Positions 3,553-43,989 of a DNA stretch of 64,000 nucleotides are shown piece after piece. A program made the position numbers and the translations under genes. The first letter of the stretch is position 1. Each line of letters begins with the position of its first letter. The notes beneath the pieces were generated by a model. It was not told the DNA's origin. It saw only the letters and a list, made by a program, of their open reading frames with translations, and made no database searches. The stretch lies in IMG/VR virus record IMGVR_UViG_3300020576_007358, one strand, 5' to 3'. Source of the stretch: a virus.

Positions 3553-3842
3553 GTGATGTTGTGCTGCCGGGTTGGGCTAAGTGTTACAGTGATTCTCAAG
3601 CGTTGATTGATCGCATCATGCGTTACTTTCACCGTAAGTCAAGGCCAGTGTACCTCGGCGAGATCTCGATAGAGACCGGTCTGTCGTTGAAGAAGACAGA
3701 AGAGTTGCTGCAATGCTTCGTTGAAGCTCAGCTCATCAAACCAGCACCAAAAGAGACGCTGAAAAAGTTGGGATCAGATGAATCGTCCGTGGTCTTTGTG
3801 CTGTCTGGAAGTTCAGATTTGAAGTTCGCGTACCTAGAATAG
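3549..3842 (+). CDS. Hypothetical protein.
   Basis: ORF overlaps the preceding stop (ATGA). No recognisable motif. Confidence 0.3.
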   Translation: MSDVVLPGWAKCYSDSQALIDRIMRYFHRKSRPVYLGEISIETGLSLKKTEELLQCFVEAQLIKPAPKETLKKLGSDESSVVFVLSGSSDLKFAYLE

Positions 3843-4776: not shown

Positions 4777-5036
4777 AGAACAGCTCATACTTGAGCCTGC
4801 GTTCTTGTGTCTTTACTACGGCGGCTGCACGTGGACGGAAACGTACAACATGCCAGTCGCCTACAAGAGATGGCTGATCGAGAGGATCGTTAAAGAGATC
4901 AATAAGGGCGGTGACGATGAACCACCACCCACAAAAGCTTTGCACCAGAACACGCCAGAAGTAAGGGCGATGCAAGGTCGTCAGCGTGCGCAGGTACCTT
5001 CAAGGCTCAGACGTTTCACTTGATGATACTTACATC

Positions 5037-5858
5037 ATGCCGAACGAGAAGTGGACGTCTGCAGGCGGTGTTGTTCTAGATTCGCTTGAAGAACCGTATC
5101 GAGTGTACGTTTGCAAGCCGTCTAACAATTACGGTCCGTGGACTTTTCCAAAAGGAAGAGTTGATGCTGGCGAAGGTCTAGAAGAAACTGCGCTCCGCGA
5201 AGTTCAAGAAGAGGCAGGCGTTCCAGCCAAGATGCTTCCGAACGGTTCGCTTGGAACTGGTGTTGGGTCGTACAGCATCACGCACTACTTCATGATGGTC
5301 AGAACCGGTCCGGTCGGTGCTCATGATTATGAGATGGAAGAAGTGAGATGCTGCACTCTTGATGAAGCGCAAGAACTGTTTGTATCAGACGGTAACAGCA
5401 GAGATGTTGGTATCCTTAATCGAGCAGCTGCATACATAGAGAAGAACGTTAAAGGAAAAGAGAAGATGTCTGAGTCAAAAGTTATCAACGAATTGAAGAC
5501 AAATTTGCTCGGTAAGATCTTCTTTGCTACGGTTGGAGCGTGGTTGGTGGGTAAAGCTGTCAACGTCAAACTTCGCGGTACTAATGAGCAAGTCCAAACC
5601 GTGGCCAACGCGTTGCTAGCGTCAAAGAAGTTTCAGGATGAGCTGAAGCACCCAGGTGCAACGGTTGAATCTGTCATGAACAAACTTAGCGTGAAACACA
5701 TGACTGCTCAAGAGTTCGAGAAGCAATTTAACATTCCGTTCCCGTTGTTATTTTATGCTACTTTTATCACTTTTGAAACTTCGCGTCGCAAATCACTTCC
5801 GAAACAACTGGTAAAGAACATGACTGATAACGAAATAAGAAACCTACTTGTAGGTTGA
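5037..5858 (+). CDS. Nudix hydrolase fused to an unknown C-terminal region of about 130 aa.
   Basis: Nudix box GRVDAGEGLEETALREVQEEAGV. ORF track start 4986 is GTG; ATG at 5037 (MPNEKW) is the likelier start. Confidence 0.55.
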   Translation: MPNEKWTSAGGVVLDSLEEPYRVYVCKPSNNYGPWTFPKGRVDAGEGLEETALREVQEEAGVPAKMLPNGSLGTGVGSYSITHYFMMVRTGPVGAHDYEMEEVRCCTLDEAQELFVSDGNSRDVGILNRAAAYIEKNVKGKEKMSESKVINELKTNLLGKIFFATVGAWLVGKAVNVKLRGTNEQVQTVANALLASKKFQDELKHPGATVESVMNKLSVKHMTAQEFEKQFNIPFPLLFYATFITFETSRRKSLPKQLVKNMTDNEIRNLLVG

Positions 5859-5865
5859 GGTCTAA

Positions 5866-8800
5866 GTGGCGGGCCCAGTAGATAAAGACCAGGTTGATAT
5901 TGCGACAAAGCTAGCTGCTTTGATGGATCGCATGGCGGTGTCGTCTGCGAAGATTGACGCGGCTTACGCTACGCAAGTAGAGTCAATGAAGCAGTTGGCT
6001 ACTACGATGGGCCAAGTTGATGTTAAGAACGTCATCGGCGAGATAGGAAAGATCAACAAAGATCTGAAGCAGATGGCTGAAAGCCTATCCAAGGCCAAGA
6101 ACATCAACCAACAAACGTTTGAAGAGATGGCGAAGAAGGCTGGTGATGCTGGAACGTCAGTGACGTCGCTTAGCGGTCGAATCAAAGAGTCGACGAAGCT
6201 CATAGAAGGAATGAATAAGACACCCCTTGATAAGCTTCATGAGGCATTGTCAGAACCGGGTGGCGCCGCAGGTGTCTTGAACAAGCAACTTGGCAAGCTT
6301 GGCATAACTGTGTCAAAGAAGTTTCCTGAAGGCATGCTGGTTGCATCAGCGGCTGCGTCGGGTTTTGCACAAGGCATTGAAAATGTCATCGCTGTCGGTA
6401 AAGCTTCACTTGGAATGCTTGAAGGTTTGACGTCTGCGTTGTTTAACATTGGTGGTGCGATCCTTGCAATCCCGTTCAAGATGTTCAAGGGATTGATCGA
6501 TATCGCAAATAATGCTGGCGCTGGATCAACTGAGCTAGCACAAGCTATCGAAAACCTCAGAAAAGAATTTGGAGCTTTGGGAACTGGATCACCAAAGGTG
6601 ATCATGGACATGTCCATCCAGTTGAAGGGATTCTCAGATACTGGCCTATCTGCATACAGGATCTTTGGTAACCTGGCACATCGACTAGAAGAATTTTTGA
6701 AGTTGGCTCAGGAGATGGGACCAAACTTCCAGAACTTTGCTGATGAATTCAAGGAGAATGGTGGTGCTCTGCTCGCCTGGCAGAAGGGTCTTGGTCTATC
6801 TGGTGAGATGATGAGGACCATGAGCGAGAGAGCAAAATCTCTCGGAACCAACATGGCGAAGCAGCTGTACGAGGTTCAGAAGCAAGCTCAGGGTCTTGGC
6901 AAAGCATTCCAGATTGATTCAAAGTTGATCTCTAGGGACATGGCAAAAGCCTTCGCTGACGTGAAGCACTTTGCTGGCGCAACTGTCAAAGAGATCGCGA
7001 CGGCGTCTGTATACGCTAGGAAGTTGGGCCTAGAGCTTGACAAGATCACTGGCACGCTAGATGCGTTTGATACTTTTGACTCAGCTGCTGAGAACGCAGC
7101 AAAGCTGTCGCAATCGTTCGGTTTGAACGTCGATGCTTTTAAGCTGATGGAAGCTCAAGATCCAGCAACGCAGATTGACATGCTGCGCAAGCAGTTTGCT
7201 GCCGCTGGTCAGGATGCATCTTCTTTCAATCGTCAGCAGATGAAGCTTCTTGCTTCAACGACCGGTCTTGATGAAGCAACTGCACGTCAAGTTTTTTCTT
7301 TGAAGAACCAAGGCGCTTCTCTTGATGACATCAAGAAGAAGAGCGAAGGCGCTGAGAAGAAGCAGATGAGCCAGGCAGAAGCCATGAAGGCTCTTGCTGA
7401 CTCGATTGAGAGACTAGTTCAGGCAGGTGGTCAGGGTTCTGGTGGTTACTTTGAGCGTTTCTTCAGAGGGTTCTTGGGAGGAATCCAAGCCTCGAAGGAG
7501 TTCAGAGATACTATTATGAATATCCGACGAGGTTTGCAACTTGTCGAGATGGCAGGTGTGAAAGCTGGTAAATTGTTCGCCCAGCTTACGCCGATCCAAG
7601 AGTTCTTGGGCGGTCTTGCTGAATTTTTCAAACCAGGAAAATTTTCTAAGCTGTTTAATGCTTTTGGCGAAGAAATCGTTGCATTCTTTGAAGATGCAAC
7701 GCACGGTGAACATTCATTCCCAAAACTGATGGAGAACATCCAGAAGCATTTCTTTGATTTCTTCAATGATCAGACACCCGCTGGACAGAAAACCATCAAG
7801 GGATTTCGAAAGATCTTTAAGATCATCATCAATGTGATTGCGGATGGCATAAGATGGGCTTCAACAAAAATTGCTGAAGTTTTGAAAAGCATCACAAAAT
7901 TGATTCTTGATCCAAAATCTGCAAAAGATGCAGTCAAGGAAGCAGGTGGAGACGGTGCTGCTGCTGCGTTCGAGATGATTCAACCTCTGATTGATTCTCT
8001 TAGAGATTCGTGGAATATTCTAAAACCAGCAATTTTTGACTTGGTTAAGGTAGTTGGTGAAAAACTGTTTGAGTACTTCACGTCTGACGACTTTATCAAT
8101 CTTGTGAAGCCGGCATTGCCATACGTGTTTGGAATCTTGTTTGGTCCTGCCATAGTCAGATCACTGTTGGGAATTATGACTTCTAGCGTTGGTTCATTGA
8201 TAGCTAACGCAATTAAAGGAGCATTCTTGGGACCTGCAGCTGGTGCTGCAGAAAGAGCTGGAACTCGAGGGTTTGGAGGTCTATTTAGGAAAATTTTTGG
8301 CGGACTTGGCAAATTCTTGGGACCTGCAGCAATCGCAGTTGCTATCGGTGATCTTGCTGTCAATGTTAACGATGCAATGAAGAAGTTTGAAGACAAGCTT
8401 GCACCAACGTTCGGTAGAACTGAAGCAAAGATGGGTGCAGCTGCGGCTGGTATTATTAATGCTTTTACGTTCGGATTGCTGCCAGACTCAATTCAAGAAA
8501 TTGTTGCTGAACAATTTGCGTCAATGTCAGAGATGATATTTGGTGCAATTCAAGATGTTTTTGGTGCTTCTTTCACTGGAAGGTTGAAGGCATATATTGG
8601 TTCTGCGCTTGATGTCTTTGGCAGCTTCGGTAACTTGATCTCTGAGATCTTCAAAGGAAAAGAGGGCGATATATCCGGCGCGCTTCAAGATCTTGGTGGC
8701 AAATTGTTGAGTTTCGTTGGCAACTGGTTCTTGTGGATGGTTGAGCAGATTCCAACGTTGTATGTGATGGCATTTCAATTCGGAACAAAGCTGCTTTCTA

Positions 8801-24583: not shown

Positions 24584-25368
24584 ACGATGACATCAAGCCG
24601 ACAACGCAAGCTTCATTCGCACAGTATGGAAAGTCCTTCCAAGAAAAGCTGTGCCAAGCGCTGCTCGTTGACAAGCAGTTTGCTGAGCAGATGCTGGAGG
24701 TCTTTAACGTAACGTACCTAGAGCCAAAATACTTGGTGTTTCTTGCTGAACGTTATTTTTCGTACGCTCAGAAGTACAAGGTGTTTCCAACGATGCAGTT
24801 GCTCATCACGATCATCAGAGACGAGCTAAAGATTGGAACTGACGTTGTCATCAGAGATCAGATAGTAGATTACTTGCAACGCATGCGCTCTAATCCTGAC
24901 GTTGGAGATCTTCAGTACGTCAAGGAAAAGGCGCTAGATTTCTGCAGGAAGCAAGCGTTGCGCAGCGCTCTTGAAGAAGCGGTTGATCAGATACAGGCAG
25001 AGAAGTATGAATCGATCGTTGAAGGCATCAAGAAAGCAGTGATGGTCGGAACTGCTCCGCAGTTGGGTCATGACTTCTTTGCCGATTACGAGAGTCGCTT
25101 CACCAAGCTGTCGAGGAATGCAATTGCTACAGGTCTTCCAGAGCTAGATAAGAAAGACATCTTGAACGGTGGGTTGGGATCAGGTGAGCTAGGTTGCGTT
25201 GTTGGTGCGACTGGAACAGGAAAGTGTGTACATCGTGATACTTACATTCAGGTAAAATATACTGGAGTGAGAATTGATGGAAAACTATACAAGCCTTGGG
25301 ATCGAATTGCAACAAGGCGTGGAATCATCTTTGCTAGAGACGTCGTCGAATCAGATGAACTTGAGTGA
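24580..25368 (+). CDS. DnaB/gp41-like replicative helicase N-terminal piece, ending in P-loop GATGTGK, followed by an intein N-half (CVHRDTYIQ..., 47 aa) and a stop.
   Basis: Walker A is interrupted exactly at the GK|S position by Cys+1, the classic DnaB P-loop intein site. Confidence 0.6.
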   Translation: MNDDIKPTTQASFAQYGKSFQEKLCQALLVDKQFAEQMLEVFNVTYLEPKYLVFLAERYFSYAQKYKVFPTMQLLITIIRDELKIGTDVVIRDQIVDYLQRMRSNPDVGDLQYVKEKALDFCRKQALRSALEEAVDQIQAEKYESIVEGIKKAVMVGTAPQLGHDFFADYESRFTKLSRNAIATGLPELDKKDILNGGLGSGELGCVVGATGTGKCVHRDTYIQVKYTGVRIDGKLYKPWDRIATRRGIIFARDVVESDELE

Positions 25369-26458
25369 TAAATTCAAGTGTCAATATTGTTGTCAGCAAT
25401 ACAACAATCAATCTGGGTTGATCACGCATATTCGACGCAAGCATTCAACAACATTCACAGATTACAAGTTGAAATTTTCTCATCTTTACAAAGTTGAAAA
25501 AAGAGAAAAAAAACTTAGTCTAAATGAACTAGCTAGACGTAAACGTGATGAAAAAGCTATTGATGATGGACTTCAAGTTTTGAAGTGTGAAATTTGCAAT
25601 TATGAATCTTACTACAGTTTGATATCGCACATCGTAAGAAAACACGGTGTGGCTATGAATGAATATCGATCAAATTTCCCTTCAGCAGTTGTACAGCAAG
25701 TTACATCAGATGTCAGAGAAAAAAATAGAAAGAATGCAACGTTGCATCTTTCAGATCCTATCAAGAAAGCGAATTTTCTAAAACGAAGATCTTTTCCTTC
25801 TGAGATGAAACACTGGATCAATAAGGGATTTTCATCAGACGAAGCAAAGAAAAAAGTTGCTGAATTTCAACAAGCGATTGCGCTTAAAGGTAATAATGAA
25901 AAAACGAAGGCAAAACAGTCAATTAGAAATTCTGGTCAAAATAACCCAATGTCATTGACATCAATTTCGAAACGTCTTAACGTTTCGAAGGATGACGCAA
26001 GCAAATTGACACCGTGTTATGGAAGATCAGGCATCAAACATCCGATGTTTGGTAAAAAACACAGTATTGAAGCTTTGAACAAAATTGGTCAACACATTAA
26101 TCACACCGGACGTTCGAAAATCGAACACGAAATGTCTGATCTGATCATTTCATTGTATGGTGGTCTAAAGAACGTAGGAGTAAATGGTTGGTGCTGTGAT
26201 TACGTTAATCACGATCGTCAGATTATAGTTGAATTTTTTGGTGATTATTGGCATCACAATCCGGAAAAATATGATAGAAATTTTGTCAACAACTTTACTA
26301 AACGTTCATCTGAAGAAGTTTGGTTGCGTGATGCACGCAAATTGAATGAACTTAGAGAGAGCGGCTTTAACGTTGTTGTGATATGGGAATCTGATTGGCG
26401 AAACAAAAAAGAAGACAGTTTGAACAGGATAAAAGATGCTTTCAATAGAACATTGTGA
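25355..26458 (+). CDS. Free-standing homing endonuclease (C2H2 zinc fingers, Vsr-like core EFFGDYWH...VVIWESDW) between the helicase pieces.
   Basis: ORF 25274..26458. ATG 25355 (MNLSDKFKCQYC) overlaps the intein-N stop. Confidence 0.55.
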   Translation: MNLSDKFKCQYCCQQYNNQSGLITHIRRKHSTTFTDYKLKFSHLYKVEKREKKLSLNELARRKRDEKAIDDGLQVLKCEICNYESYYSLISHIVRKHGVAMNEYRSNFPSAVVQQVTSDVREKNRKNATLHLSDPIKKANFLKRRSFPSEMKHWINKGFSSDEAKKKVAEFQQAIALKGNNEKTKAKQSIRNSGQNNPMSLTSISKRLNVSKDDASKLTPCYGRSGIKHPMFGKKHSIEALNKIGQHINHTGRSKIEHEMSDLIISLYGGLKNVGVNGWCCDYVNHDRQIIVEFFGDYWHHNPEKYDRNFVNNFTKRSSEEVWLRDARKLNELRESGFNVVVIWESDWRNKKEDSLNRIKDAFNRTL

Positions 26459-27677
26459 AGTTGTTGAAGTTGTTAAAGTTGGTGATCTGTTTGCTAGCAT
26501 TGGATTTAATGATGATTCAGTTGCTGATGATTCTGGTGATTCATTTATTCCGAATGAATGGTCAATAGAAGTCAGATCACTTGACACTTTCTATCCTGTA
26601 GATGGTTTTCGTTGGACAAAACCAGAGCAGCAGGTGAAATTGACATATGGCAAAGAATCTTCTTTGCAGTGTTCACCAGAACACATTGTTTTGAAGTATT
26701 CTTCTACAGAAACTCAATGGACAAAAGTTAGTGATCTATCGCCTGGTGATGACATTGTCACTGTTAATGGCATATGCATGATTGATTCGATTGATAATCT
26801 AGAGGAACTTGATCGTCTTTGCGACCTTCAAGTATCAATTGCACATTCTTACTATGCTGACGGTGTGTTGTCACATAATTCTCACTTTCTTACGTTCTTG
26901 GGTGCAATGGCGCTGAGGAACAACGTTGATGTTCTTCACTACACGTTTGAGCTATCAGAGACTCAAGTTGGTATCAGGTATGATTCTAACTTGTGTGACA
27001 TTGATTCGAATGCTGTCATTGACAGCAAGGATCGTATTCTTACTAAGTACGCAGAGCAAAAGCTGGGACGCTTGATCATCAAGTACTTTCCGACGAACAC
27101 AGCTAGCATCTACACGCTTCGAAGTCACATCGAGCGCCTCGGAACGAAGGGTTTCAGGCCAGGATTGATTATCATCGACTATGCTGACATCATGAGATCA
27201 ACTCGTCAGTTCGATTCTTTGAGACACGAGCTTAAGCTCGTTTACGAAGAACTAAGAGGAATGGCTGGTGAGCTAGGAATCCCAGTGTGGACAGCGAGCC
27301 AGAGCAACAAAGAGGGAGCGACAAGCGAGATCATCGACATGGGAAACATGTCTGAAGCTTACGGCAAAGCGATGATCGCTGACGTGATCGTCAGCATCTC
27401 TAGGCGTGCTCACGAGAAGTCAACGGGTCAAGGTCGATTGTACGTTGCAAAGAATCGCGCCGGGCGCGATGGTCTTGTTTATCCGTTGCACATTGACACC
27501 TCAAAGAGCAACTTTGAGATCTTGGGTGGACCGGGTTCTTTGGACGTCGCCATGAAGGAGAACGAATCTGACATCAAGAAAGTTCTTCGTTCAAAGTGGA
27601 ACGAGATGAGAAATGATCCAATCATCGGCGAAAATCTAAAAAGAGGAAGCGATTCTAGCGATGACACGGGTTCTTGA
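26436..27677 (+). CDS. Intein C-part (about 148 aa with blocks B, F, G; ...VLSHN) fused to the helicase C-terminal piece (SHFLTFLGAMAL...).
   Basis: HN|S junction at 26880. Helicase motifs follow downstream (IIDYADIM, SQSNKEG, RAGRDG). Confidence 0.6.
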   Translation: MLSIEHCEVVEVVKVGDLFASIGFNDDSVADDSGDSFIPNEWSIEVRSLDTFYPVDGFRWTKPEQQVKLTYGKESSLQCSPEHIVLKYSSTETQWTKVSDLSPGDDIVTVNGICMIDSIDNLEELDRLCDLQVSIAHSYYADGVLSHNSHFLTFLGAMALRNNVDVLHYTFELSETQVGIRYDSNLCDIDSNAVIDSKDRILTKYAEQKLGRLIIKYFPTNTASIYTLRSHIERLGTKGFRPGLIIIDYADIMRSTRQFDSLRHELKLVYEELRGMAGELGIPVWTASQSNKEGATSEIIDMGNMSEAYGKAMIADVIVSISRRAHEKSTGQGRLYVAKNRAGRDGLVYPLHIDTSKSNFEILGGPGSLDVAMKENESDIKKVLRSKWNEMRNDPIIGENLKRGSDSSDDTGS

Positions 27678-33349: not shown

Positions 33350-34525
33350 ATGGCGCGTATACTACGAACATATCAATTTAATTGCAAGCAATGCGGTAAA
33401 AAGTGTGAAAAGTCTAACCGTAGTGGAAAACAACCAAATTTTTGCGATACTTCATGTAGTCAAATTTGGTCATATGCACATGGTCGAATTAAAACTGCTT
33501 CACGTGAATTCAAAATTCACCAACATGGCGTAGAAAGAGTTCATGAACTCGAAAAATTGCAGTATTACACATTTACATGCGAATACTGCAATGCTAACGT
33601 TACAAAGCGTAAAAGATCTCCTTTGCCAAGATTTTGCAATCGAAAGTGTTCAACGCAATTTACAGCAGTTCATGGTCGTAAACCAACGATTAACGCTGTA
33701 CATCGTAAAGCTATGAGCGAAAGAGCTACGGCTAAGTTGCTAGAGCAACCAGAGAATTTGTATTCTTGGAATACAATTAAAGGATGGTACAAAGGTAACT
33801 TCTTTAGAAGTTCGTATGAATATCACTTTCTTAAGTGGCTCGAAACAAAACAAGTCAATTTGCAGACAGATTTGAAAAAAGTACCTACTATTCAATATGA
33901 GTTTGACGGTCGTGGTCACACATATATCCCAGATTTTTACGTTGAAAAATGGAGAACGTTGTTTGAAGTTAAAAGTTCTTATGCGTGTAAAAATGATCCA
34001 AAAGTTCTTGCAAAAGCTGTTGCAGCAGAAGATTTCTGTAAAGACAAGCAATTGACTTATCAAATCATAACAGAAGATACATTGCCAGAATTGAAATCAG
34101 ACATAACTTTGATTAAGCATGATAAGTGTGTATTTTTGTTGTCAACATCTAAATCGACTGATGATCGACTTGAACACATGTTCGTTGAACAAATGAAGTT
34201 CATGAAACTCCTGCGTCAGGAAAGAAATTTCCCAGAATTTCCAGTTGATGTTTCTTCAAAACCTGGTCAGAAACTTCTTAAAGAAGTTGCACATGAATGC
34301 ATGCATGAATTGTTTGAATCTGTGCATTTGCTTCGTAATTCAAAATCACACAGAATATCTGATGTGCAAGATTTTGATAAAGAGGCCTTTTTGGAAGAGT
34401 TGTCAGATACGTTGCATTATCTGATGGAATTGTTTATCTTGAGTGGTATTACTAGCAAAGATTTGTACAAAGCATATATGAAAAAAGGAACAATCAATTT
34501 TGCTAGAATATTGAGCAATTATTGA
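33350..34525 (+). CDS. Homing endonuclease-like protein: N-terminal CxxC zinc fingers, PD-(D/E)xK core (YIPDFYV...FEVK), and a C-terminal extension whose last residues duplicate the N-terminus of the downstream Hsp20 gene.
   Basis: ORF track. Repeated AYMKKG..N..RI motif at 34480 and 34555. Confidence 0.5.
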   Translation: MARILRTYQFNCKQCGKKCEKSNRSGKQPNFCDTSCSQIWSYAHGRIKTASREFKIHQHGVERVHELEKLQYYTFTCEYCNANVTKRKRSPLPRFCNRKCSTQFTAVHGRKPTINAVHRKAMSERATAKLLEQPENLYSWNTIKGWYKGNFFRSSYEYHFLKWLETKQVNLQTDLKKVPTIQYEFDGRGHTYIPDFYVEKWRTLFEVKSSYACKNDPKVLAKAVAAEDFCKDKQLTYQIITEDTLPELKSDITLIKHDKCVFLLSTSKSTDDRLEHMFVEQMKFMKLLRQERNFPEFPVDVSSKPGQKLLKEVAHECMHELFESVHLLRNSKSHRISDVQDFDKEAFLEELSDTLHYLMELFILSGITSKDLYKAYMKKGTINFARILSNY

Positions 34526-35121
34526 TTGCATCAGGTGTAACGCTTGATGAGATGCACGAAGCGTACATGAAAAAAGGTGAAGTCAACCGAAAAAGGATCG
34601 AATCAGGGTACTTAGCCCCTGTACATTGCTTAAGGAGTGTTTTATCATGTTTTCACGAGATTGGTTCTCGTGGAAAGGAAAACACTGCTATGCTAACTCG
34701 TTACTATGATACGATGAGAAATCCAACCTACAAGTTCGGTGACTTTAACGCAATCTTTGATGACATGCTTTCAATTGATCCATTTAAGTCAGAATCTTCT
34801 ATCTGGACGAAGAAGATCATGAACAATCTACCAGAACCAACGTTTTGGCATGAGAAGACTGAAGAAGGTTCTGCTCTTCACGTTGAACTACCGGGATACA
34901 AGAAAGAAGACGTATCGATAACGCTGCAAGACAAGACTCTTGTTGTCAAGGCTGAACGTAAGATGCCCGGCGGTGCGAAGACTGTCTCGTGGAGCTGGCG
35001 CATTCAGGATACGTACGAGTCCAATCCAACGTTTGCGAAGCTAGCTGATGGCATCCTTACGATAGGATTGAAGAGTAAACAACCACCACCTGAAGAAGCA
35101 CTCAGCATAAAGATCGAGTAA
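34522..35121 (+). CDS. Small heat-shock protein, Hsp20/alpha-crystallin family.
   Basis: ACD-like core HVELPGYKKEDVSITLQDKTLVVKAERK. Confidence 0.55.
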   Translation: MIASGVTLDEMHEAYMKKGEVNRKRIESGYLAPVHCLRSVLSCFHEIGSRGKENTAMLTRYYDTMRNPTYKFGDFNAIFDDMLSIDPFKSESSIWTKKIMNNLPEPTFWHEKTEEGSALHVELPGYKKEDVSITLQDKTLVVKAERKMPGGAKTVSWSWRIQDTYESNPTFAKLADGILTIGLKSKQPPPEEALSIKIE

Positions 35122-35334: not shown

Positions 35335-36012
35335 ATGGGAAATAGATCTGATCAAGTTAAAAAGTTGTGGCAAACACCAGAATTTCGTGAAAAAATTATC
35401 GCAGCATCTAAAGACGGAAAAGCGTCGATTGAATCAAAACTTAAGCGTTCTAAAAGCTCAAGTAAATTGTGGTCTGATCCGGATTATTGTGAAAAACAAC
35501 GAATAAAACACAATGAACGAAAGAAAAGATTTGAACAAAAGCGAGTGACTATAACGTGTCTGACGTGTGGAAAAGAATGTAAGGTTAATGCAACAGTTGC
35601 AAAAACTAAGAAGTACTGTTCTCGTCGTTGCGTTATTAACAACCCAGCTTTTAACGTAAATCGAAATTTTTCCAACAGCACGTGTGTTGCTTGTCAGACA
35701 GAATTCAAACCAACTGGTGTTAAACAGTTGTGCTGCACTACATGCGTTCCAAATAATTCAGCAAAATCACGTTGGAATTCGTATAAATTGACTCAACCAA
35801 TGTACGAAATGTTGCTAAGTCAACAGGGAAATTGTTGCGCACTGTGCGAAATTTCATTCAGTAATTTGAATTCAAAAGAAATTCATGTAGATCATGATCA
35901 TACTACAAATAAAATTCGTGGCATATTGTGTATGCGGTGCAATCGTAGCTTGGGTGTGGTAGAGTATATTCCACACTTTTTGGAAAAAGTAGCAACTTAT
36001 GTCAACATTTGA
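35335..36012 (+). CDS. HNH endonuclease with NUMOD-like repeats (homing endonuclease candidate).
   Basis: CALC...HVDHDH...RGILCMRCN HNH core. Repeats KLWQTPEFREKI and KLWSDPDYCEKQ. Confidence 0.55.
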   Translation: MGNRSDQVKKLWQTPEFREKIIAASKDGKASIESKLKRSKSSSKLWSDPDYCEKQRIKHNERKKRFEQKRVTITCLTCGKECKVNATVAKTKKYCSRRCVINNPAFNVNRNFSNSTCVACQTEFKPTGVKQLCCTTCVPNNSAKSRWNSYKLTQPMYEMLLSQQGNCCALCEISFSNLNSKEIHVDHDHTTNKIRGILCMRCNRSLGVVEYIPHFLEKVATYVNI

Positions 36013-36952
36013 TATCGATACACGAACAATCATTCGTGTAATTCATGGTTCATATGCATATGGACTCAACATTGCAGGTTCAGATATCGATTACAAGGCT
36101 GTTTGTGTACCTACAAAAGAGCGGTATTTTGGATTTTTGAACAACTTTGAACAGGCTGAGATGATGGCATCAAAAACAGGTGGTGTTGACTCTGTGACCT
36201 TTGCACTTGATAAGTTCGTGCGGCTCGCTGCTGACTGCAACCCAAACATCATAGAGATCCTGTTCGTTGATGACAGCGACGTCCTCGACATCAATTCTTG
36301 GGGTGAAGAGCTCCGTGAGTTCAAAGACAATTTCATATCCAGGAAGGCGAAGCACACTTTCTCGGGCTACGCTCATTCTCAGCTTCATCGCATCAAGAAT
36401 CACCGTGCATGGTTGCTGAACCCTCCCGCGAGCGCCCCAGCACGATCCGATTTTGGGCTGTCCGACGTGTCTCGTGTTTCGAAGAGTGAGCTCGGCGCTT
36501 ACGATTCTGCGATCGAGAGCGGTATTGCTCTCGACGTGCCGAAGAGCGTCCTGACTCTGTTCACAAGGGAAAAGCAGTACGCCGCAGCAAAGACGCACTA
36601 TGACCAGTACGTTCACTGGAAGAAGTCTCGCAATCCTGCTCGAGCAGAGCTCGAAGCAAAGATTGGATATGATAGTAAACATGGCGCGCATCTCATGAGG
36701 TTGATGCGCATGTGCAAGGAGATCCTTGAGACTGGCAAGGTTAACGTGAAGCGTCGATTCGATAGAGAGGAACTTCTGGAGATTCGTAACGGTCATCGTC
36801 CCTACGATAGCCTCATCGAGGAAGCTGAGAGGCTTGAGAGCGATTGTGAAGAGCTGTACAAGACTTCTACAGTGCGCAAAGAGCCAGATCGGGAGAAGAT
36901 CAATGCATGGCTCGTGGATTTCACTGAGCGTTACCTTGCAATTCATGGCTGA
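35999..36952 (+). CDS. Pol-beta superfamily nucleotidyltransferase.
   Basis: GSYAYGLNIAGSDIDY matches the GS-x9-13-DhD signature, resembling class I CCA-adding enzymes and minimal NTases. Region has elevated GC. Confidence 0.5.
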   Translation: MSTFDIDTRTIIRVIHGSYAYGLNIAGSDIDYKAVCVPTKERYFGFLNNFEQAEMMASKTGGVDSVTFALDKFVRLAADCNPNIIEILFVDDSDVLDINSWGEELREFKDNFISRKAKHTFSGYAHSQLHRIKNHRAWLLNPPASAPARSDFGLSDVSRVSKSELGAYDSAIESGIALDVPKSVLTLFTREKQYAAAKTHYDQYVHWKKSRNPARAELEAKIGYDSKHGAHLMRLMRMCKEILETGKVNVKRRFDREELLEIRNGHRPYDSLIEEAERLESDCEELYKTSTVRKEPDREKINAWLVDFTERYLAIHG

Positions 36953-37019
36953 AAATTAGTTTGAACATGGGGCGCACAGAAGGTAAAGTAAGCACATCTA
37001 ACGGAGACGGAGAAAGAAA

Positions 37020-37895
37020 ATGGGAAAGCTCAATCAAGTCATTGCAGTTGAAAAGTCGGTGAAGAACAAGGCGCATGCTGCGATCACTGAGATCTACCAG
37101 AAGATGCAGAAGGCTCCCCTCCTGCAGGGAATTTCGCGGACGTACCGTCCGAAGGACGAGCTTGGTGAGGCTCTTCCGTCTGAGTCGTCCCGTGTTCAGC
37201 TGAATGCTACGGATTTCCTCAAGGAGCTCTCGTCGACCTTGACGGATCTCTTTGACGTCACTGCGACGAAGGATTTCGCGAACTGCGAGGCTCGCACTGA
37301 TCTTACGGTCGGTGATGTGGTTCTTGCGAAGAACGTGCCGGTTACGTACCTTCTCTTCCTCGAGAAGAAGCTGGTTGATCTGCACACGTTCGTCAGCAAG
37401 CTTCCCGTCCTTGATTCTTCGGAGGAATGGACTCTGGATCCGAACGTGAACTGCTACGCTACGAAGCCGTCCGAGACGACTCGTACGAAGAAGGTCTTTG
37501 TCCCGCTTGTCCTTGCTCCGGCGACTGACAAGCACGCAGCCCAAGTCAAGGAGGGCTACGAGGATCAGGTCGTGGGTTTCTGGAAGACTGTGAAGTTCTC
37601 TGGAGCTCTTCCGGCTCAGCGAGTTGCTGAGCTTCTGGCTCGAGTCGAGAAGCTGCAACGTGCAGTGAAGTTCGCTCGTGAGGAATGCAACGCTCGTGAG
37701 GCACCACCAGTCCAGGTTGGAGCCCGCGTTTTCGATTACCTGTTCGGTTTATCCGTAACAGGTTTGCGCAAGCTGAAAATCAGCCTTACGCTAACAGAGA
37801 GAGCTAGCAAAATTGTAGGTTCAAATCCTACCCCCTCCACTGACTCACAGTCAAGGAGTGATTCACCTCAAGTTATGCTTGGAACGAATCAATGA
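37020..37895 (+). CDS. Hypothetical protein in the GC-rich island. Its 3' tail reads through tRNA-like half alpha-3', and its stop abuts tRNA-like half alpha-5'.
   Basis: ORF track. The antisense ORF 36921..37658 is low-complexity. Confidence 0.4.
   Translation: MGKLNQVIAVEKSVKNKAHAAITEIYQKMQKAPLLQGISRTYRPKDELGEALPSESSRVQLNATDFLKELSSTLTDLFDVTATKDFANCEARTDLTVGDVVLAKNVPVTYLLFLEKKLVDLHTFVSKLPVLDSSEEWTLDPNVNCYATKPSETTRTKKVFVPLVLAPATDKHAAQVKEGYEDQVVGFWKTVKFSGALPAQRVAELLARVEKLQRAVKFAREECNAREAPPVQVGARVFDYLFGLSVTGLRKLKISLTLTERASKIVGSNPTPSTDSQSRSDSPQVMLGTNQ
37815..37839 (+). tRNA. tRNA-like 3' half 'alpha': T-arm gtagg-TTCAAAT-cctac, 3' acceptor cccctcc, discriminator a. CCA is not encoded.
   Basis: Read from sequence. 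Perfect 7/7 complementarity to GGAGGGG at 37896, which lies downstream. Confidence 0.4.
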
Positions 37896-37922
37896 GGAGG
37901 GGTGGCGGAACTGGCAGACGCA
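37896..37922 (+). tRNA. tRNA-like 5' half 'alpha': acceptor GGAGGGG, then TG, then a type-II-like D-arm GCGG-AACTGGCAGA-CGC. Followed by ACTGGTGA.
   Basis: D-arm is nearly identical to bacterial tRNA-Leu/Ser (GGCGGAAUUGGUAGACGC). Cognate 3' half is 57 nt upstream. Confidence 0.4.
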
Positions 37923-38026
37923 CTGGTGATCTCAACTCAACCTGAAGCTATCGCAACAGGTTCACTTAGTCGATAAAGGATGCAAGGATCAATCAATCGT
38001 TCACCGGCTGAATATTGCGAACTAGT

Positions 38027-38054
38027 GTGAGTTCAAATCTCACCCGCGCCTCCA
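38027..38054 (+). tRNA. tRNA-like 3' half 'beta': T-arm gtgag-TTCAAAT-ctcac, 3' acceptor ccgcgcc, discriminator t, encoded CCA.
   Basis: Perfect 7/7 complementarity to GGCGCGG at 38088, which lies downstream. Confidence 0.45.
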
Positions 38055-38087
38055 TGTTCCAACAGGAACAGCTGAAGCAGTAAATAA

Positions 38088-38130
38088 GGCGCGGTAGCTT
38101 AATGGCAGAGCGAGGTCGTCTAAGGACTGA
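38088..38130 (+). tRNA. tRNA-like 5' half 'beta': acceptor GGCGCGG, D-arm TAGCTTAATGGCAGAGC, anticodon arm ggtc-gTCTAAg-gact(g) with anticodon CUA (amber-reading). Followed by ACTGGTGAAC.
   Basis: Read from sequence. Trailer ctggtgaac pairs 9 bp with leader gttcaccgg at 37999..38007. Confidence 0.45.
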
Positions 38131-38203
38131 CTGGTGAACTTAAACGTGTGATCCCTTTCTGTAAAAAATCGACGTCAACACGATAAGTTGACTAACTCTA
38201 GAT

Positions 38204-38228
38204 GGCCCGGGTAGGATACACCCGGGCC
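38204..38228 (+). terminator. Stem-loop ggcccggg-taggataca-cccgggcc followed by gtcgctaatttt.
   Basis: Perfect 8-bp GC stem plus a T-run, downstream of the tRNA-like cluster. Confidence 0.4.
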
Positions 38229-38282
38229 GTCGCTAATTTTGGGACAGTGCACTTATTGCACTAACAGTGTTAGGATAAAAGA

Positions 38283-39263
38283 ATGAGAACCGTTTTCATC
38301 TTGCGTGGGTTGCCGGGGTGTGGAAAGTCGACTTTCGCAGCGAGCCTCGTTGCAAAGGAGCCAAAACGCTGGGTTCGCATCAATAGAGATGATCTAAGGT
38401 CTATGTCAGTGGGACCAGCAAACAACCCGCACACCGGTGACAAGACTCGTGAAGAGTTTGTTCGTGAGGCGAAGAACAACCTGCTGTCTGCTGCGTTGAA
38501 GTCCGGTTACGATGTCATCTTGGACGACACGCACCTTGTGCCGCAGACTGTGAAGAAGCTGCACACGTTCGTGGAATCGATCGGCAACGTGAAAGTCATC
38601 GAGAAGTCTTTCAACGTTGATGTAGAAGAGGCAATTGCCCGTGATGCGAAGCGCTCAGGTTTTGCTCACGTGGGTGAGAAGGTCATCCGTGACATGGCAC
38701 GTGGAGCCGGGTTGGAAGGTCGACGAAAGCTGCCTGATCGTGAAGTTTATTACCCGCCGATCGGCTGCGGCGATCCACTGACGATCAATCCAGATCTTCC
38801 AACGGCTATCATGGTTGACTTGGACGGTACGCTTGCTCTCATCGGCGATCGTTCGCCTTACGATGCGACTGATTGCGACGAAAAAGATTTGCCGAACTGG
38901 CCTGTCATCAAAACGGTCCTGGCGATGTATGCTCAAGGCGTGAAGATCATCTTCATGAGCGGCCGCGACGTGAAGTATCGTCCAGAAACTGTGAGGTTCA
39001 TCGAGAAGTACTGCCGTGAGATCGATCTGAAGCTCTGGGGGCCGGATGGCAGAGCAATCCCGTACGAGCTGCACATGCGCGGTGAACTGGATCTGACTAA
39101 AGTTGATCAGCGAAAGGACAGCATCATCAAGGAAGAACTCTTTGATGCTCATGTTCGTGGGAAGTACAACGTTCTGTTCGTTCTTGACGATCGGAATCAG
39201 GTTTGTAGAAAATGGCGTGAATTGGGTCTGACAGTTTTTCAAGTAGCAGAAGGTGATTTTTAG
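38283..39263 (+). CDS. pnk: Polynucleotide kinase-phosphatase (T4 Pnk-like; N-terminal P-loop kinase, C-terminal HAD/DxDGT 3'-phosphatase).
   Basis: GLPGCGKSTFA...RDDLR...DDTH kinase motifs. MVDLDGTL...MSGRD phosphatase motifs. Confidence 0.65.
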   Translation: MRTVFILRGLPGCGKSTFAASLVAKEPKRWVRINRDDLRSMSVGPANNPHTGDKTREEFVREAKNNLLSAALKSGYDVILDDTHLVPQTVKKLHTFVESIGNVKVIEKSFNVDVEEAIARDAKRSGFAHVGEKVIRDMARGAGLEGRRKLPDREVYYPPIGCGDPLTINPDLPTAIMVDLDGTLALIGDRSPYDATDCDEKDLPNWPVIKTVLAMYAQGVKIIFMSGRDVKYRPETVRFIEKYCREIDLKLWGPDGRAIPYELHMRGELDLTKVDQRKDSIIKEELFDAHVRGKYNVLFVLDDRNQVCRKWRELGLTVFQVAEGDF

Positions 39264-39299
39264 CATGTTGCTGTCTGACACGAAAAGGGTTCAGCAACG

Positions 39300-39557
39300 A
39301 TGAGTGCTGTGAAGCACATCATGTTCGGCCTCGCTGTGGTGGAAGACTTTCAAAAAGTCGCTGATCGATTGTACGAACTGGGTGCTGAGGCTGTAGATCA
39401 GCTCTACAGGGACACTAACTCTGTAGAGCTGGCATCTCGGTGCTACGTTCAAGTTAACGAAAGCTGCCATGATGCCATCTTGGATGAACTTAAGAGTTCA
39501 TCCAACGTTTGTGACATCATAATTCCAGCGCAGAGAGTGGTAAGAAAGAGAGCGTAA
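39300..39557 (+). CDS. Hypothetical protein.
   Basis: ORF track. Confidence 0.3.
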   Translation: MSAVKHIMFGLAVVEDFQKVADRLYELGAEAVDQLYRDTNSVELASRCYVQVNESCHDAILDELKSSSNVCDIIIPAQRVVRKRA

Positions 39558-39558
39558 C

Positions 39559-40344
39559 GTGAAAAAATACGATCGTACCCGACACATTCGAGGAAGTCGT
39601 TTCCAACACGGAGACGATGATCTTGAAGCTGTTCCGTGGGAAGATCTTGCTGGCAAGAATCTTGTCGTAGAAGAAAAAGTTGATGGTTCACAAATTGGTA
39701 TCAGCTTTGAAGATCAACGCTTGATGCTGCAATCACGAGGGCATTACCTTAGAGGTGGTCCTCGTGAGATTCAATTCAACCTTTTGAAGCAATGGGCAAC
39801 TTCAAAAACAGAAGATCTGTACTGCATTCTCGAAGATCGTTACGTTATGTTCGGTGAGTGGATGTATGCATGTCACACCATGTTTTACGATGCATTGCCT
39901 CACTATTTCATGGAGTTTGACGTGTACGATCGAGACACAAATCTCTACCTTGATACGCCGTCCAGAATGCAGCTTTTGGCACCGCTGAACTTGCAGTCTG
40001 TGTTGGTCTTGAAGAGTGGAAAGTTCTCGAAGTTGAAGGAGCTTCAGTCTCTCATCATCAGATCAAACTTCGTGACTGATCAACGTAATGAAAATTACGT
40101 GAAGTCTGCCAGGGCAGCGTACCCAGAAAAAACAGACGAAGAGATCCTAGCGAAACTTGACAAGAACGACACGATGGAGGGCCTCTACGTGAAATGGGAA
40201 GAAGGAGGTTATGTCCGTGGACGTTACAAGTTTGTTCGTGAATCATTCATCTCGTCTATTGCGGGTCAAGAAGAACATTGGCATGACAGACCAATTGTTC
40301 CGAATTGCCTGACGCCGCTAGCGTTGGAAAAAATGTTCGAATAA
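39559..40344 (+). CDS. ATP-dependent RNA ligase-like nucleotidyltransferase.
   Basis: Motif I EKVDGSQIGI (KxDG). N-terminal Y.RT.HI.GSRFQ.GDDD resembles the RNA_ligase (DraRnl-type) family. Confidence 0.45.
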   Translation: MKKYDRTRHIRGSRFQHGDDDLEAVPWEDLAGKNLVVEEKVDGSQIGISFEDQRLMLQSRGHYLRGGPREIQFNLLKQWATSKTEDLYCILEDRYVMFGEWMYACHTMFYDALPHYFMEFDVYDRDTNLYLDTPSRMQLLAPLNLQSVLVLKSGKFSKLKELQSLIIRSNFVTDQRNENYVKSARAAYPEKTDEEILAKLDKNDTMEGLYVKWEEGGYVRGRYKFVRESFISSIAGQEEHWHDRPIVPNCLTPLALEKMFE

Positions 40345-40361
40345 CGGAGTATTATTCACGC

Positions 40362-41213
40362 ATGCCAAAAATTGCATGGGCCACAGATATCCATCTTGAC
40401 ACTCTGGAGAAAACGCCAGAGAAGATCGTTCAGTTCGCAGAATCGTTGATCGTCGATCAACCAGATGCAATCGTTTTGACTGGTGATCTTTCAACGTACG
40501 CCGATCTAACGTACCACTTGTCTATCATCGAACGTGTTGTCCAGCGACCGGTTTACTTTGTCCTTGGAAATCATGATTTCTGGGGTGGCGGCGTCTCTGA
40601 TGTTCGTCTTGAGATGAAGAACCTCAGCAACATGTCGCAGTTCTTGCGATACTTGCCGAACACTCCGTACGTGACGTTGTCACCAACAACAGCTCTTGTT
40701 GGTCATGATTGTTGGTACGATGCTGGTTACGGATCACCGATGACAAGCACGATGATCATGAATGACTGGATCAGAGTGAAAGATTTTGCCGTAGAGCACT
40801 GCGTCACATACGGAGATACGTACGGTTCATATAAGACTAACAAACCTAAGGTCATCGAGATCTCGAAGAAGCTAGCGTCTGAAGGTACAGCGCACATCAT
40901 CAATGGCATCAAAGCAGCAGCAAAGTATCACAAAGTGATCATGATTGCCACACACTTTCCACCATTCCAAGAGACTCATCTCTACAATGGTAAAGTTGGC
41001 GATGCAGCTGCACAGCCATGGTACACGAACAAGATGCTCGGTGACGTGCTTCGTCAAGCAGCATCACAGCTTCCAAAGGTCAGGTTTGAGGTCTTTGCTG
41101 GTCACACTCATGGGAAGTGTGACATGCAGATCAGCGACAACTTGTTTGTTCACGTTGGCGAAGCCGAGTACAAGCAACCACGTTTGCAGAATGTCATCAC
41201 GGTGCCTTTATGA
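40362..41213 (+). CDS. Calcineurin-like metallophosphoesterase.
   Basis: D.H......GD...GNHD motifs (ATDIHLD, LTGDL, LGNHDFW). ORF 40305; ATG 40362 preferred. Confidence 0.5.
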   Translation: MPKIAWATDIHLDTLEKTPEKIVQFAESLIVDQPDAIVLTGDLSTYADLTYHLSIIERVVQRPVYFVLGNHDFWGGGVSDVRLEMKNLSNMSQFLRYLPNTPYVTLSPTTALVGHDCWYDAGYGSPMTSTMIMNDWIRVKDFAVEHCVTYGDTYGSYKTNKPKVIEISKKLASEGTAHIINGIKAAAKYHKVIMIATHFPPFQETHLYNGKVGDAAAQPWYTNKMLGDVLRQAASQLPKVRFEVFAGHTHGKCDMQISDNLFVHVGEAEYKQPRLQNVITVPL

Positions 41214-43461: not shown

Positions 43462-43989
43462 ATGAACCGCGCCCTGTTGCTCAACGCAGACTATTCACCG
43501 TTGCATTTCATTAGCGATGAACGTGCAATCGTTCTCGTGTACATCGGCCATGCCGAAGTCGTCGAGATGAACGGTGCACCATCTGTGTGGTCGGGTGAGT
43601 ACTTTGTTTCGCCTTCCACGAAGATAGCGGTGCCAGCAACCGTCAGGCTGACTTCAAGAATCACCAAGAAGTGGAAGCAGCCTCGATTCAGGCGAAAGGT
43701 CTTGTTCAACCGCGACGGGTGGAAGTGTCAGTATTGCTCTGAAGAGCTTAATTGGTCTTCCGTCACGATGGACCACGTTCATCCAAGTTCACGAGGTGGA
43801 GACACTTCGTGGAAGAACTGCGTCGCGGCATGCAAGCCTTGCAATCGCAAGAAGGCGAACAGGACTCCTGATGAAGCGAACATGCGCCTCCTGAAGGCAC
43901 CAGTGAACCCAACGCCGTTGCACTTTTGGGACATCTCTAAAACCTCCGCAGACCACCCTGACTGGGAGGCATTTATCCCAAAGATGTAA
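43462..43989 (+). CDS. HNH endonuclease.
   Basis: CQYC...TMDHVHPSSRGG...N...C..CNRKKAN. Confidence 0.5.
   Translation: MNRALLLNADYSPLHFISDERAIVLVYIGHAEVVEMNGAPSVWSGEYFVSPSTKIAVPATVRLTSRITKKWKQPRFRRKVLFNRDGWKCQYCSEELNWSSVTMDHVHPSSRGGDTSWKNCVAACKPCNRKKANRTPDEANMRLLKAPVNPTPLHFWDISKTSADHPDWEAFIPKM

Follow-up and report, generated by a model that had tools for sequence, protein, structure and literature searches.

The locus described here raises the question of whether two transfer RNA (tRNA)-like sequences, in which the 3′ part is encoded before the 5′ part, are halves of tRNAs that must be joined by the repair enzymes encoded beside them. The locus is located at 36.0-41.2 kb of the IMG/VR virus record IMGVR_UViG_3300020576_007358, of which the whole analysed stretch of 64,000 nucleotides (nt) is referred to as the window. 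The two sequences, alpha and beta, lie between the gene of a DUF7873 family protein and the gene of a polynucleotide kinase-phosphatase (Pnkp), and the initial annotation of the window had interpreted them as permuted tRNA halves within an RNA processing and repair island. The observation itself is confirmed by our analysis and its interpretation is partly supported. The locus is probably a phage RNA-repair (most likely tRNA-repair) cassette at 36.0-41.2 kb that encloses a self-contained module of DUF7873 and a Y-RNA-like RNA of ~0.5 kb, and this explanation is held with modest confidence. The RNA consists of two tandem tRNA mimics, each with a T-arm, a 7-base-pair (bp) acceptor stem and a D-arm, and exhibits the topology of the YrlA-type Y RNAs. 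The apparent permuted halves, judged from the sequences of homologues, are most simply read as one continuous fold for which ligation would be unneeded. The novelty lies in the new protein partner of a tRNA mimic that resembles Y RNAs; the enzymes themselves belong to families that are already known.

Two tRNA-like units in the window

The elements of the RNA and their positions in the window are given below.

37738..37814, plus strand: 5′ domain of the RNA with local hairpins, including GCGCAAGCUGA-AAA-UCAGCC, from the minimum free energy fold; it overlaps the tail of an open reading frame (ORF) and its boundaries are approximate
37795..37944, plus strand: tRNA-like unit A (alpha), from sequence reading, model R1 and covariation
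37815-37831, plus strand: alpha T-arm (GTAGG-TTCAAAT-CCTAC), read from the sequence
37832-37838, plus strand: alpha acceptor 3′ strand CCCCTCC, followed by A, without CCA
37839-37895, plus strand: alpha insert of 57 nt
37896-37902, plus strand: alpha acceptor 5′ strand GGAGGGG, followed by TG and the D-arm at 37905-37921
37984..38159, plus strand: tRNA-like unit B (beta) with two outer helices, from model R1, the YrlA match and covariation
38027-38043, plus strand: beta T-arm (GTGAG-TTCAAAT-CTCAC), read from the sequence
38044-38050, plus strand: beta acceptor 3′ strand CCGCGCC, followed by UCCA
38051-38087, plus strand: beta insert of 37 nt
38088-38094, plus strand: beta acceptor 5′ strand GGCGCGG, followed by TA and the D-arm at 38097-38111
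38201..38231, plus strand: terminal hairpin with a 12-bp stem, the loop AGGAUAC and then a weak U-tract, a terminator-like site

The acceptor strands of alpha and of beta are complementary at 7/7 positions each, with the T-arm before them and the D-arm after them. The permuted order, the absence of an encoded CCA from alpha and its presence in beta had all been described in the initial annotation and were borne out by direct reading of the sequence. An alternative in which the alpha 5′ strand pairs with the beta 3′ strand (GGAGG/CCUCC), to give the normal order with a large insert, was rejected, since the two permuted pairings are perfect and covary among homologues. The 57-nt and 37-nt inserts in the acceptor loops are structured and lineage-specific; such loops are normally tiny.

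The GCGCAAGCUGA motif upstream of unit A is conserved in all lineages, and a compensatory change in the hairpin of the 5′ domain (GCUGA/UCAGC to CCUGA/UCAGG) was found in locus L002. Unit B carries the conserved ACUGA and CUUAAACG motifs. The hairpin at 38201-38231 is the probable 3′ end of the RNA, and at least 21 of the 57 non-redundant loci have a hairpin with the loop NGGAYAY and a covarying stem in the corresponding position. The RNA extends over about 37.74-38.24 kb, either as one RNA or as two adjacent RNAs.

Conservation and covariation of the RNA

Loci encoding DUF7873 were gathered from viruses (68 loci) and from bacteria (80 loci). The covariance model R1 was constructed from 34 unit B sequences, with the window excluded from the seed. 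R1 matches unit B of the window at 37984-38159 over model positions 1-145 of 145 (93.4 bits, E 8.6e-22) and unit A with 30.5 bits (E 7e-6), and over the 64-kb window it matches nothing beyond these two. Alpha and beta are real elements and not chance matches.

A simple pattern search identified one or two units directly 3′ of the DUF7873 gene, on the same strand, in most loci. A strong full-length R1 match just downstream of DUF7873 on the same strand was identified in 67 of the 73 viral or additional loci and in 78 of the 80 bacterial loci. The layout of DUF7873 followed by the RNA is therefore exhibited by 145 of 153 loci, from Streptomyces, Deinococcus, myxobacteria, Chloroflexi and many phages. 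The unknown protein at 37020-37895, which had been taken for a bystander, is DUF7873 and is the one constant partner of the RNA, and the linkage of the RNA to its gene is near-obligate. The window also exhibits the layout of two units ~150-210 nt apart after DUF7873, where the units start at 37815 and 38027 and the protein core ends at ~37748.

The acceptor strands vary by locus yet are always complementary, with 52 and 50 distinct stems in the 57 non-redundant loci, and all acceptor stems are 7 bp. The loop that closes the acceptor is most often 7 nt, usually 6-8 nt, and ranges from 6 to 76 nt in the same loci. These loops tend to open with N-C-Y-A, which is ACCA in 14/57 unit A and UCCA in 14/57 unit B sequences.

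Five helices are exhibited by the alignment of 35 unit B sequences, in which 93% of the cells are paired compared with 63% in shuffles. The covariation score is 0.816, compared with 0.23 in shuffles (0/500 reach 0.816) and 0.12-0.18 when the partners are slid. The two outer helices of unit B, which were unused in the selection of the sequences, are 85-91% paired and exhibit many double changes. In unit A, covariation is likewise exhibited by the T, acceptor and D stems (41 homologues). Only a GAGCG/CGCUC helix of the unit A outer stem was resolved by RNAalifold and a column-pair scan, and in single-sequence folds this outer stem is a long interrupted rod in most lineages and a set of local hairpins in the clade of the window.

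The claim that alpha and beta are tRNA halves that need end-joining fails on these features. The supposed halves are joined by a loop of 6-8 nt in most homologues, so they cannot be separate genes. The region opposite the acceptor does not form an anticodon arm but pairs with sequence 5′ of the T-arm, which gives the covarying outer helices. A canonical anticodon arm after the D-arm was identified in 1 of the 35 unit B sequences, that of the window, where a 4/5-bp stem and a 7-nt loop with the anticodon CUA can be drawn. The amber-suppressor reading of beta was rejected, as this arm is specific to the window. No tRNA gene was identified in the window by ARAGORN, and no tRNA was called there by Rfam at gathering thresholds. 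Since the acceptor is closed by a loop and the anticodon end consists of long helices, a continuous fold without ligation is the likely structure. A practical caution follows for annotation, in that such loci should not be called split tRNA genes.

Several further observations were made on unit A. Its 5′ arm in most bacteria is built from the 6-nt repeats AAGCUG AAGCUG AAGUCG AAGCUG (L103 at 6775-6805, L140, L009, L073 and others), and single-sequence folds pair these repeats with CUCAGAYUCUCGCUCCAGAYUCAGC after the D-arm into a long rod of 3-5-bp helices with regular breaks. The equivalent region of the window is 37764-37795, and local hairpins are found there instead in the clade of the window. 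The repeat-built arm may be a platform for several protein copies. Unit A also occurs in two flavours. The first has a class II-like D-arm (GUGGCGGAAYUGGCAGACGC) and a hairpin before the T-arm that resembles a long variable arm (L053, L020, L002, L001 and the window). The second has a class I-like D-arm (GUAGCCCAAYUGGYAGAGGC) without the hairpin before the T-arm (L103, L073 and L009). The unit A mimic seems to track the real tRNA classes.

Other observations concern single loci. A Ktedonobacterales contig (L076) exhibits two strong unit B matches at 6336-6489 and 6901-7046 (97 and 108 bits), both 1.0-1.7 kb downstream of the DUF7873 match at 4584-5303, which suggests a duplicated RNA or a second module. 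In the Gordonia phage GodonK, the RNA region matches R1 with 100 and 49 bits and is blank in the annotation except for a small coding sequence (CDS) on the opposite strand. This CDS is gene 151 (L161 at 3503-3631), a 43-amino-acid (aa) reverse-strand CDS on top of unit B, and is a probable GenBank annotation error. The ‘tRNA-Sup-TTA’ of the Klebsiella jumbo phage FBKp24 (L162 at 5018-5097) overlaps a weaker unit B-like R1 match and is likewise a probable annotation error.

Comparison with Y RNAs and other tRNA-like RNAs

Rfam 15 has no entry for the RNA, and the GenBank phages lack an annotation of it. No Rfam family was found over the RNA in 11 DUF7873 loci at gathering thresholds. With permissive thresholds, the best Rfam match, and the only meaningful one, is YrlA (RF02553) over the full-length model, both for unit B of the window (26.8 bits, E 0.0016) and for the two units of a Streptomyces locus (27.6 and 27.1 bits). 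The order of arms in these units is that of YrlA, namely outer stems, T-arm, loop-closed acceptor-like stem, D-arm and outer stems. Weak matches to permuted or cyanobacterial transfer-messenger RNA (tmRNA) models are also found over the T-arm/acceptor hairpin. The gene that adjoins the RNA encodes DUF7873 and not the Ro60/Rsr protein with a TROVE domain that partners YrlA. No TROVE domain was found in the island or in the gene tables of loci L149, L154, L155, L158 and L160. The RNA fails membership of YrlA by score and by partner, yet it is Y-RNA-like in design.

The closest parallel in gene layout is the rsr-yrlBA-rtcBA operon of Salmonella, which encodes the Ro60/Rsr protein, the Y RNAs YrlB and YrlA, the RtcB ligase and the RtcA cyclase (PMC7790460; PMC4201824). 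A decoy role has been proposed for YrlA's tRNA-like domain (PMC7790460). Both the operon and the window exhibit the gene of an RNA-associated protein, then two tandem non-coding RNAs of which at least one is a tRNA mimic with a closed acceptor stem, and then genes of an RNA ligase and end-modifying enzymes, with tRNA damage as the common theme (PMC7790460, PMC4201824). However, the protein in the window is DUF7873 (~243 aa, without a TROVE domain or a fold relative) and not Ro60, and the ligase is an ATP-dependent PF09414 enzyme and not RtcB. End healing is represented by Pnkp and a metallophosphoesterase and not by RtcA, and an RlaP nucleotidyltransferase is additional. The match to YrlA is ~27 bits against a gathering threshold of 69, and both units are tRNA-like with 7-bp acceptor stems. 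Most DUF7873-RNA modules are without adjoining repair genes, unlike the rsr operon.

Of the YrlA RNAs that have been tested, only that of Mycobacterium smegmatis has a 7-bp acceptor stem; RNase P cuts it in vitro, in vivo it undergoes cleavage and CCA tailing, and the loop that closes its acceptor stem is the demonstrated site of RNase P action and CCA addition (PMC4201824). The YrlA of S. Typhimurium and Yrn1 of D. radiodurans are uncleaved (PMC4201824). The DUF7873 RNA resembles the M. smegmatis YrlA in its 7-bp loop-closed acceptor stem and in the N-C-Y-A start of its loops, and differs from it in the partner protein and the flanking helices.

The permuted tRNA genes of Cyanidioschyzon merolae and other algae and the split tRNAs of archaea are like the window in that the 3′ part is encoded before the 5′ part, with a stretch at the acceptor end. 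The algal permuted and archaeal split tRNA genes restore an anticodon arm and yield translating tRNAs through a splicing endonuclease and a ligase. In contrast, the DUF7873 RNA is without a conserved anticodon arm, and its open end is a long helix.

The bacterial Y RNAs that mimic tRNAs were known only as partners of Ro60, and here the same design is tied to a different protein. The pair of DUF7873 and RNA is common (>5000 protein clusters) yet has been missed by Rfam and by genome annotation.

The DUF7873 protein

The protein gene of the module is located as follows.

37020..37748, plus strand: DUF7873 protein (Pfam PF25283), conserved core of 242-243 aa; the ORF as read runs on to 37895

The ORF at 37020-37895 matches PF25283 with 1.6e-102, over residues 1-242 only. 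More than 5200 cluster representatives are related to it, with 60-77% identity to the window copy and a typical length of ~243 aa. This conservation across Streptomyces, Deinococcus, myxobacteria, Chloroflexi, Acidobacteria and phages is unusually strong. The window ORF is 291 aa because the usual stop is missing, and its tail at 37746-37895 reads through the RNA 5′ domain and the T-arm of unit A and stops 1 nt before the acceptor 5′ strand. Since the family match ends at residue 242 and the homologues are ~243 aa, the tail is probably not a conserved part of the protein. An identical product of 291 aa is on record from four metagenome contigs.

The AlphaFold2 model of DUF7873 has a predicted local distance difference test (pLDDT) score of 89. 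The protein is encoded by 75 cultured phages, where it is annotated as "hypothetical protein" every time, and no paper that mentions DUF7873 was found in the literature. An identity of DUF7873 as an SPFH/Band-7 protein was considered and rejected, as the protein has no SPFH domain.

The 2016 work of Burroughs and Aravind, from which the name RlaP comes, is said in its abstract to mention a "novel tRNA-like molecule" together with SPFH/Band-7 scaffold-type proteins in RNA-repair systems. Band_7 genes neighbour the module in only two loci. DUF7873 itself is not an SPFH protein, and the DUF7873 RNA may have been described earlier in that work.

Enzymes of the probable repair cassette

All ORFs of the initial annotation were found in the ORF list of the window at the coordinates that it had given. 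The other genes of the cassette are as follows.

35999..36952, plus strand: RlaP-family Pol-beta nucleotidyltransferase (RNA-ligase-associated nucleotidyltransferase; Pfam PF10127, phrog_388)
38283..39263, plus strand: Pnkp, P-loop kinase and HAD phosphatase (Pfam AAA_33 and HAD_PNKP; phrog_505)
39300..39557, plus strand: small ORF of 85 aa without an assigned function, ending 1 nt before the ligase start
39559..40344, plus strand: ATP-dependent RNA ligase, a stand-alone nucleotidyltransferase domain (PF09414, KVDG motif)
40362..41213, plus strand: calcineurin-like metallophosphoesterase (Pfam Metallophos 6e-12; phrog_1649)

The profile searches that had been recommended for three of the ORFs assign 35999..36952 to RlaP, 37020..37895 to DUF7873 and 39559..40344 to PF09414. 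The proposal of an RNA processing and repair gene set is upheld, as the RlaP nucleotidyltransferase, Pnkp, the ATP-dependent RNA ligase and the metallophosphoesterase are all present and their order is kept in related phages. These four are ordinary members of known families.

The protein at 35999-36952 matches PF10127 RlaP with 3e-19 and 70.1 bits (curated cut-off 23) and the PHROGs nucleotidyltransferase family phrog_388 with 2e-65. The GS-x10-DID motif is present in its translation, which is the generic Pol-beta signature (hG[GS]...DxD). Membership of RlaP is indicated by the score above the cut-off, by the motif and by the ligase gene 2.6 kb downstream with conserved synteny. The initial annotation was thus correct in the Pol-beta nucleotidyltransferase and its motif, and not in the resemblance to class I CCA-adding enzymes or CD-NTases (nucleotidyltransferases of nucleotide signalling). 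Both identities were rejected, as RlaP is the sole Pfam family at E <=0.01 and there is no NCBIfam or PADLOC match. No significant relative of this protein was found among solved structures. RlaP is the "RNA-ligase-associating Pol-beta" family and has been reported to cooperate with RNA ligases in the repair of RNA by phages (PMC7824862).

Pnkp at 38283-39263 matches AAA_33 at residues 4-140 (3e-18) and HAD_PNKP at residues 173-326 (4.7e-46), and it matches the polynucleotide kinase family phrog_505 over its full length (1.4e-82). The motifs GLPGCGKST and DLDGT are found in its translation. It is a Pnkp of the T4 type, with an N-terminal P-loop kinase and a C-terminal HAD (DxDxT) phosphatase. 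The small ORF at 39300-39557 has 0 matches in Pfam, NCBIfam and PHROGs, and the equivalent interval is filled by small unannotated ORFs in related phages.

The protein at 39559-40344 matches PF09414 RNA_ligase with 1.2e-31 and PHROG RNA ligase families with 5e-17 and 1.5e-12. The KVDG motif at residues 40-43 is invariant in 32 homologues. The initial annotation had left room for a DNA ligase or a capping enzyme; PF09414 is the only family matched in Pfam, and the KxDG lysine together with matches to RNA-ligase and not to DNA-ligase or capping families identifies an ATP-dependent RNA ligase. Against solved DNA or RNA ligases, all matches are at E about 0.1 or worse. The metallophosphoesterase keeps the same place after the ligase in related phages.

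The tRNA repair by Pnkp and Rnl1 of T4 counters the anticodon nuclease PrrC. Both T4 and the window encode a phage kinase-phosphatase of the same family (HAD_PNKP, phrog_505) and an ATP-dependent RNA ligase. The parallel with T4 that had been drawn for the window therefore stands for Pnkp and does not stand for the ligase, as the Rnl1 family was tried and is unmatched and the family hit is PF09414. The window also differs in the extra RlaP and metallophosphoesterase, and T4 is without an embedded protein-RNA module.

Genomic context of the module

The gene order in the phage clade of the window is HSP20, RlaP, an unknown gene, metallophosphoesterase, DUF7873, the RNA, Pnkp, small ORFs, RNA ligase, an unknown gene, metallophosphoesterase and DNA methylase. 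This order is kept in related phages down to ~70% identity of DUF7873, and homologues of the ligase share contigs with homologues of DUF7873. The interval between Pnkp and the ligase consists of 1.5-4 kb of small ORFs in the relatives.

RlaP or Pnkp was found beside the module by tblastn only in the closest phage relatives of the window. RlaP, Pnkp or ligase of the window type is detectable nearby in at most ~10 loci, all of which belong to the phage clade of the window, and the RNA occurs without a detectable window-type ligase or Pnkp within 6 kb in ~140 loci. A Pfam census of 110 neighbouring ORFs from 50 other viral loci identified no recurrent protein partner of the module. The bacterial module stands alone amid unrelated genes; in Deinococcus soli, for example, it is flanked by sucB and sucA.

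About one third of the scanned viral loci carry the module within a large tRNA array on the same strand. The cultured Gordonia phage GodonK exhibits this placement, with DUF7873 and the RNA inside a same-strand tRNA array. The synteny with repair genes in one phage clade and the placement in tRNA arrays elsewhere are two independent links of the module to tRNA biology.

The immediate flanking tRNA gene is often tRNA-Lys (CUU or UUU), within ~150-400 nt of the module; this frequency is uncorrected for the relatedness of the phages. Viral loci with an adjacent tRNA-Lys are L011, L014, L036, L038, L041, L043, L048, L061, L062 and L067. The PrrC and PARIS nucleases classically target tRNA-Lys. The window phage is itself without any tRNA gene in the window, whereas many other DUF7873 phages hold the module inside arrays of 6-36 tRNA genes.

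Genes just 3′ of the RNA are occasionally an IS605 OrfB/TnpB-like gene (L051 at 7218-8432) or a Band_7/SPFH gene (L036 at 7383-8222). Phosphoesterases with a DHHA1 domain are found in the same place in L021 (7571-8419) and L037 (7762-8691). No GenBank phage was matched by the island in a megablast search, and PADLOC identified no anti-phage defence family.

Proposed function of the module and alternative explanations

In the favoured explanation of a repair cassette that encloses the DUF7873-RNA module, DUF7873 would bind the RNA in its helical parts. The domains shaped like tRNA would interact with tRNA-recognising proteins, with the RNA acting as a scaffold or adaptor for the repair enzymes RlaP, Pnkp and ligase. 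Alternatively or additionally, these domains would act as a decoy for host anticodon nucleases. The module would thereby work together with the repair enzymes. Should the module indeed cooperate with repair enzymes or counteract tRNA nucleases, the tRNA conflict between phage and host would gain a new component. The module would also provide a second, independently evolved and genetically tractable test case for the function of bacterial tRNA-like Y RNAs.

Several points weigh against this explanation. The model of DUF7873, the putative RNA-binding partner, exhibits no recognisable RNA-binding fold, and no significant fold relative was found for it in the PDB or BFVD. The linkage to repair genes counts as roughly a single evolutionary event, and the synteny could have been inherited with no functional coupling, which makes such coupling uncertain. 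Window-type repair enzymes are not found near the module beyond the phage clade of the window. The scores of the RNA lie far below the gathering threshold of YrlA. No Ro60/TROVE was found in 10 of the 13 other window ORFs of at least 330 aa, the three ORFs of >1100 aa being unscanned. The acceptor loops of the window (57 and 37 nt) are unusually long, and this copy may differ from the typical RNA in behaviour.

A broader proposal is tentative and, in our estimate, doubtful. DUF7873 and the RNA may form a widespread ribonucleoprotein that corresponds to Ro60/Y RNA in function but whose protein is unrelated and has a novel fold. RNase P would cut the acceptor loops and expose CCA, and the particle would act in a conflict over tRNA integrity, either as an anticodon-nuclease decoy or as a repair platform for RlaP, Pnkp and ligase. 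The carriers of DUF7873 and the RNA are Actinobacteria, Deinococcus, myxobacteria, Chloroflexi and at least 75 cultured phages.

The processing step may also be considered as an explanation of its own. RNase P would cut 5′ of the acceptor 5′ strands and the loops would be trimmed to, or extended with, NCCA, which would give a base-paired particle of several pieces with functional free CCA ends. As part of this proposal, the free ends could serve RlaP or CCA-adding enzymes as substrates or primers, might be charged, or might be tmRNA-like. The uniform 7-bp acceptor stems and the N-C-Y-A openings, which resemble a discriminator plus CCA, are consistent with it, and in many loops U is the last nucleotide ahead of the acceptor 5′ strand. 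The cut and CCA-tailed M. smegmatis YrlA is a precedent (PMC4201824), the structured inserts of the window resemble removable intervening segments, and the weak tmRNA matches of the T-arm/acceptor hairpin point the same way. However, the exact NCCA is found in only about a quarter of the loops, alpha of the window has no CCA and carries A and not U before the acceptor 5′ strand, and the two uncleaved RNAs of S. Typhimurium and D. radiodurans are counter-examples (PMC4201824). By analogy the processing is plausible here and is compatible with the repair-cassette explanation rather than exclusive of it; as the explanation of the locus we regard it as unlikely. The 7-bp stems and the NCCA-like loop starts are the grain of truth in the reading of permuted tRNAs.

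It is also rather improbable that the arrangement is a coincidence, in which an autonomous DUF7873-RNA module landed beside a T4-like Pnkp and ligase set in the ancestor of the clade and does no joint work with it. Such a module could be, for example, a factor related to translation or the tRNA pool, or a horizontally mobile pair of gene and RNA. The solitary bacterial modules, the absence of a shared family among the neighbours in 50 viral loci and the small ORFs that part Pnkp from the ligase in relatives are all in its favour. The 60-77% identity across phyla and phages and the raised GC content of the gene also fit frequent horizontal transfer. Against it, RlaP, phosphoesterase, DUF7873-RNA and Pnkp are contiguous in phages whose DUF7873 has diverged to ~70%, the independent association with tRNA arrays in other phages points to tRNA biology, and the layout parallels rsr-yrlBA-rtcBA (PMC7790460).

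The proposal that alpha and beta are permuted or split tRNA genes, healed and sealed by Pnkp and the ligase and given CCA by the nucleotidyltransferase, accounts for the real order of the parts with their perfect acceptor complementarity, for the UCCA of beta and for the adjacent Pnkp and ligase genes, but it is very improbable given the loop-joined halves, the covarying outer helices and the single anticodon arm in 35 homologues, the silence of ARAGORN and the Rfam tRNA models on alpha and beta, the ~140 loci that carry the RNA without such a detectable ligase or Pnkp within 6 kb, and the identity of the nucleotidyltransferase as RlaP and not a CCA-adding enzyme.

Base composition and neighbouring endonuclease genes

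The block at 35999-39263, which had been described as enriched in guanine plus cytosine (GC), is indeed so. Its GC content is 0.507 compared with the window mean of 0.452 (equal-length sliding windows, standard deviation 0.026); it ranks 5th among 608 sliding windows, and the window maximum falls inside it. The DUF7873 gene alone has a GC content of 0.551 and is the richest part of the block. The sharp left edge and the visual contrast of the block arise partly because the endonuclease-like ORFs directly upstream, at 33.3-36.0 kb, are AT-rich (GC 0.35-0.36).

In the ORF at 33350-34525, a TnsA-like endonuclease region is joined to the final 58 residues of a dUTPase_2 domain. The HSP20-like ORF at 34522-35121 begins with a near-repeat of the dUTPase C-terminal peptide (…AYMKKG…). 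dUTPase (about 141-159 aa) and HSP20 are separate genes in relatives of the window phage, and at 33350-35121 the dUTPase gene seems to have been rearranged by the insertion of a homing endonuclease. An endonuclease-like ORF with NUMOD3/zinc-finger similarity is located directly upstream of a DnaB-type helicase gene with a weak intein-splicing match (window 25274-27677). An endonuclease VII ORF at 35335-36012 and an HNH ORF at 43462-43989 are also found in the window, and the region is rich in selfish endonucleases.

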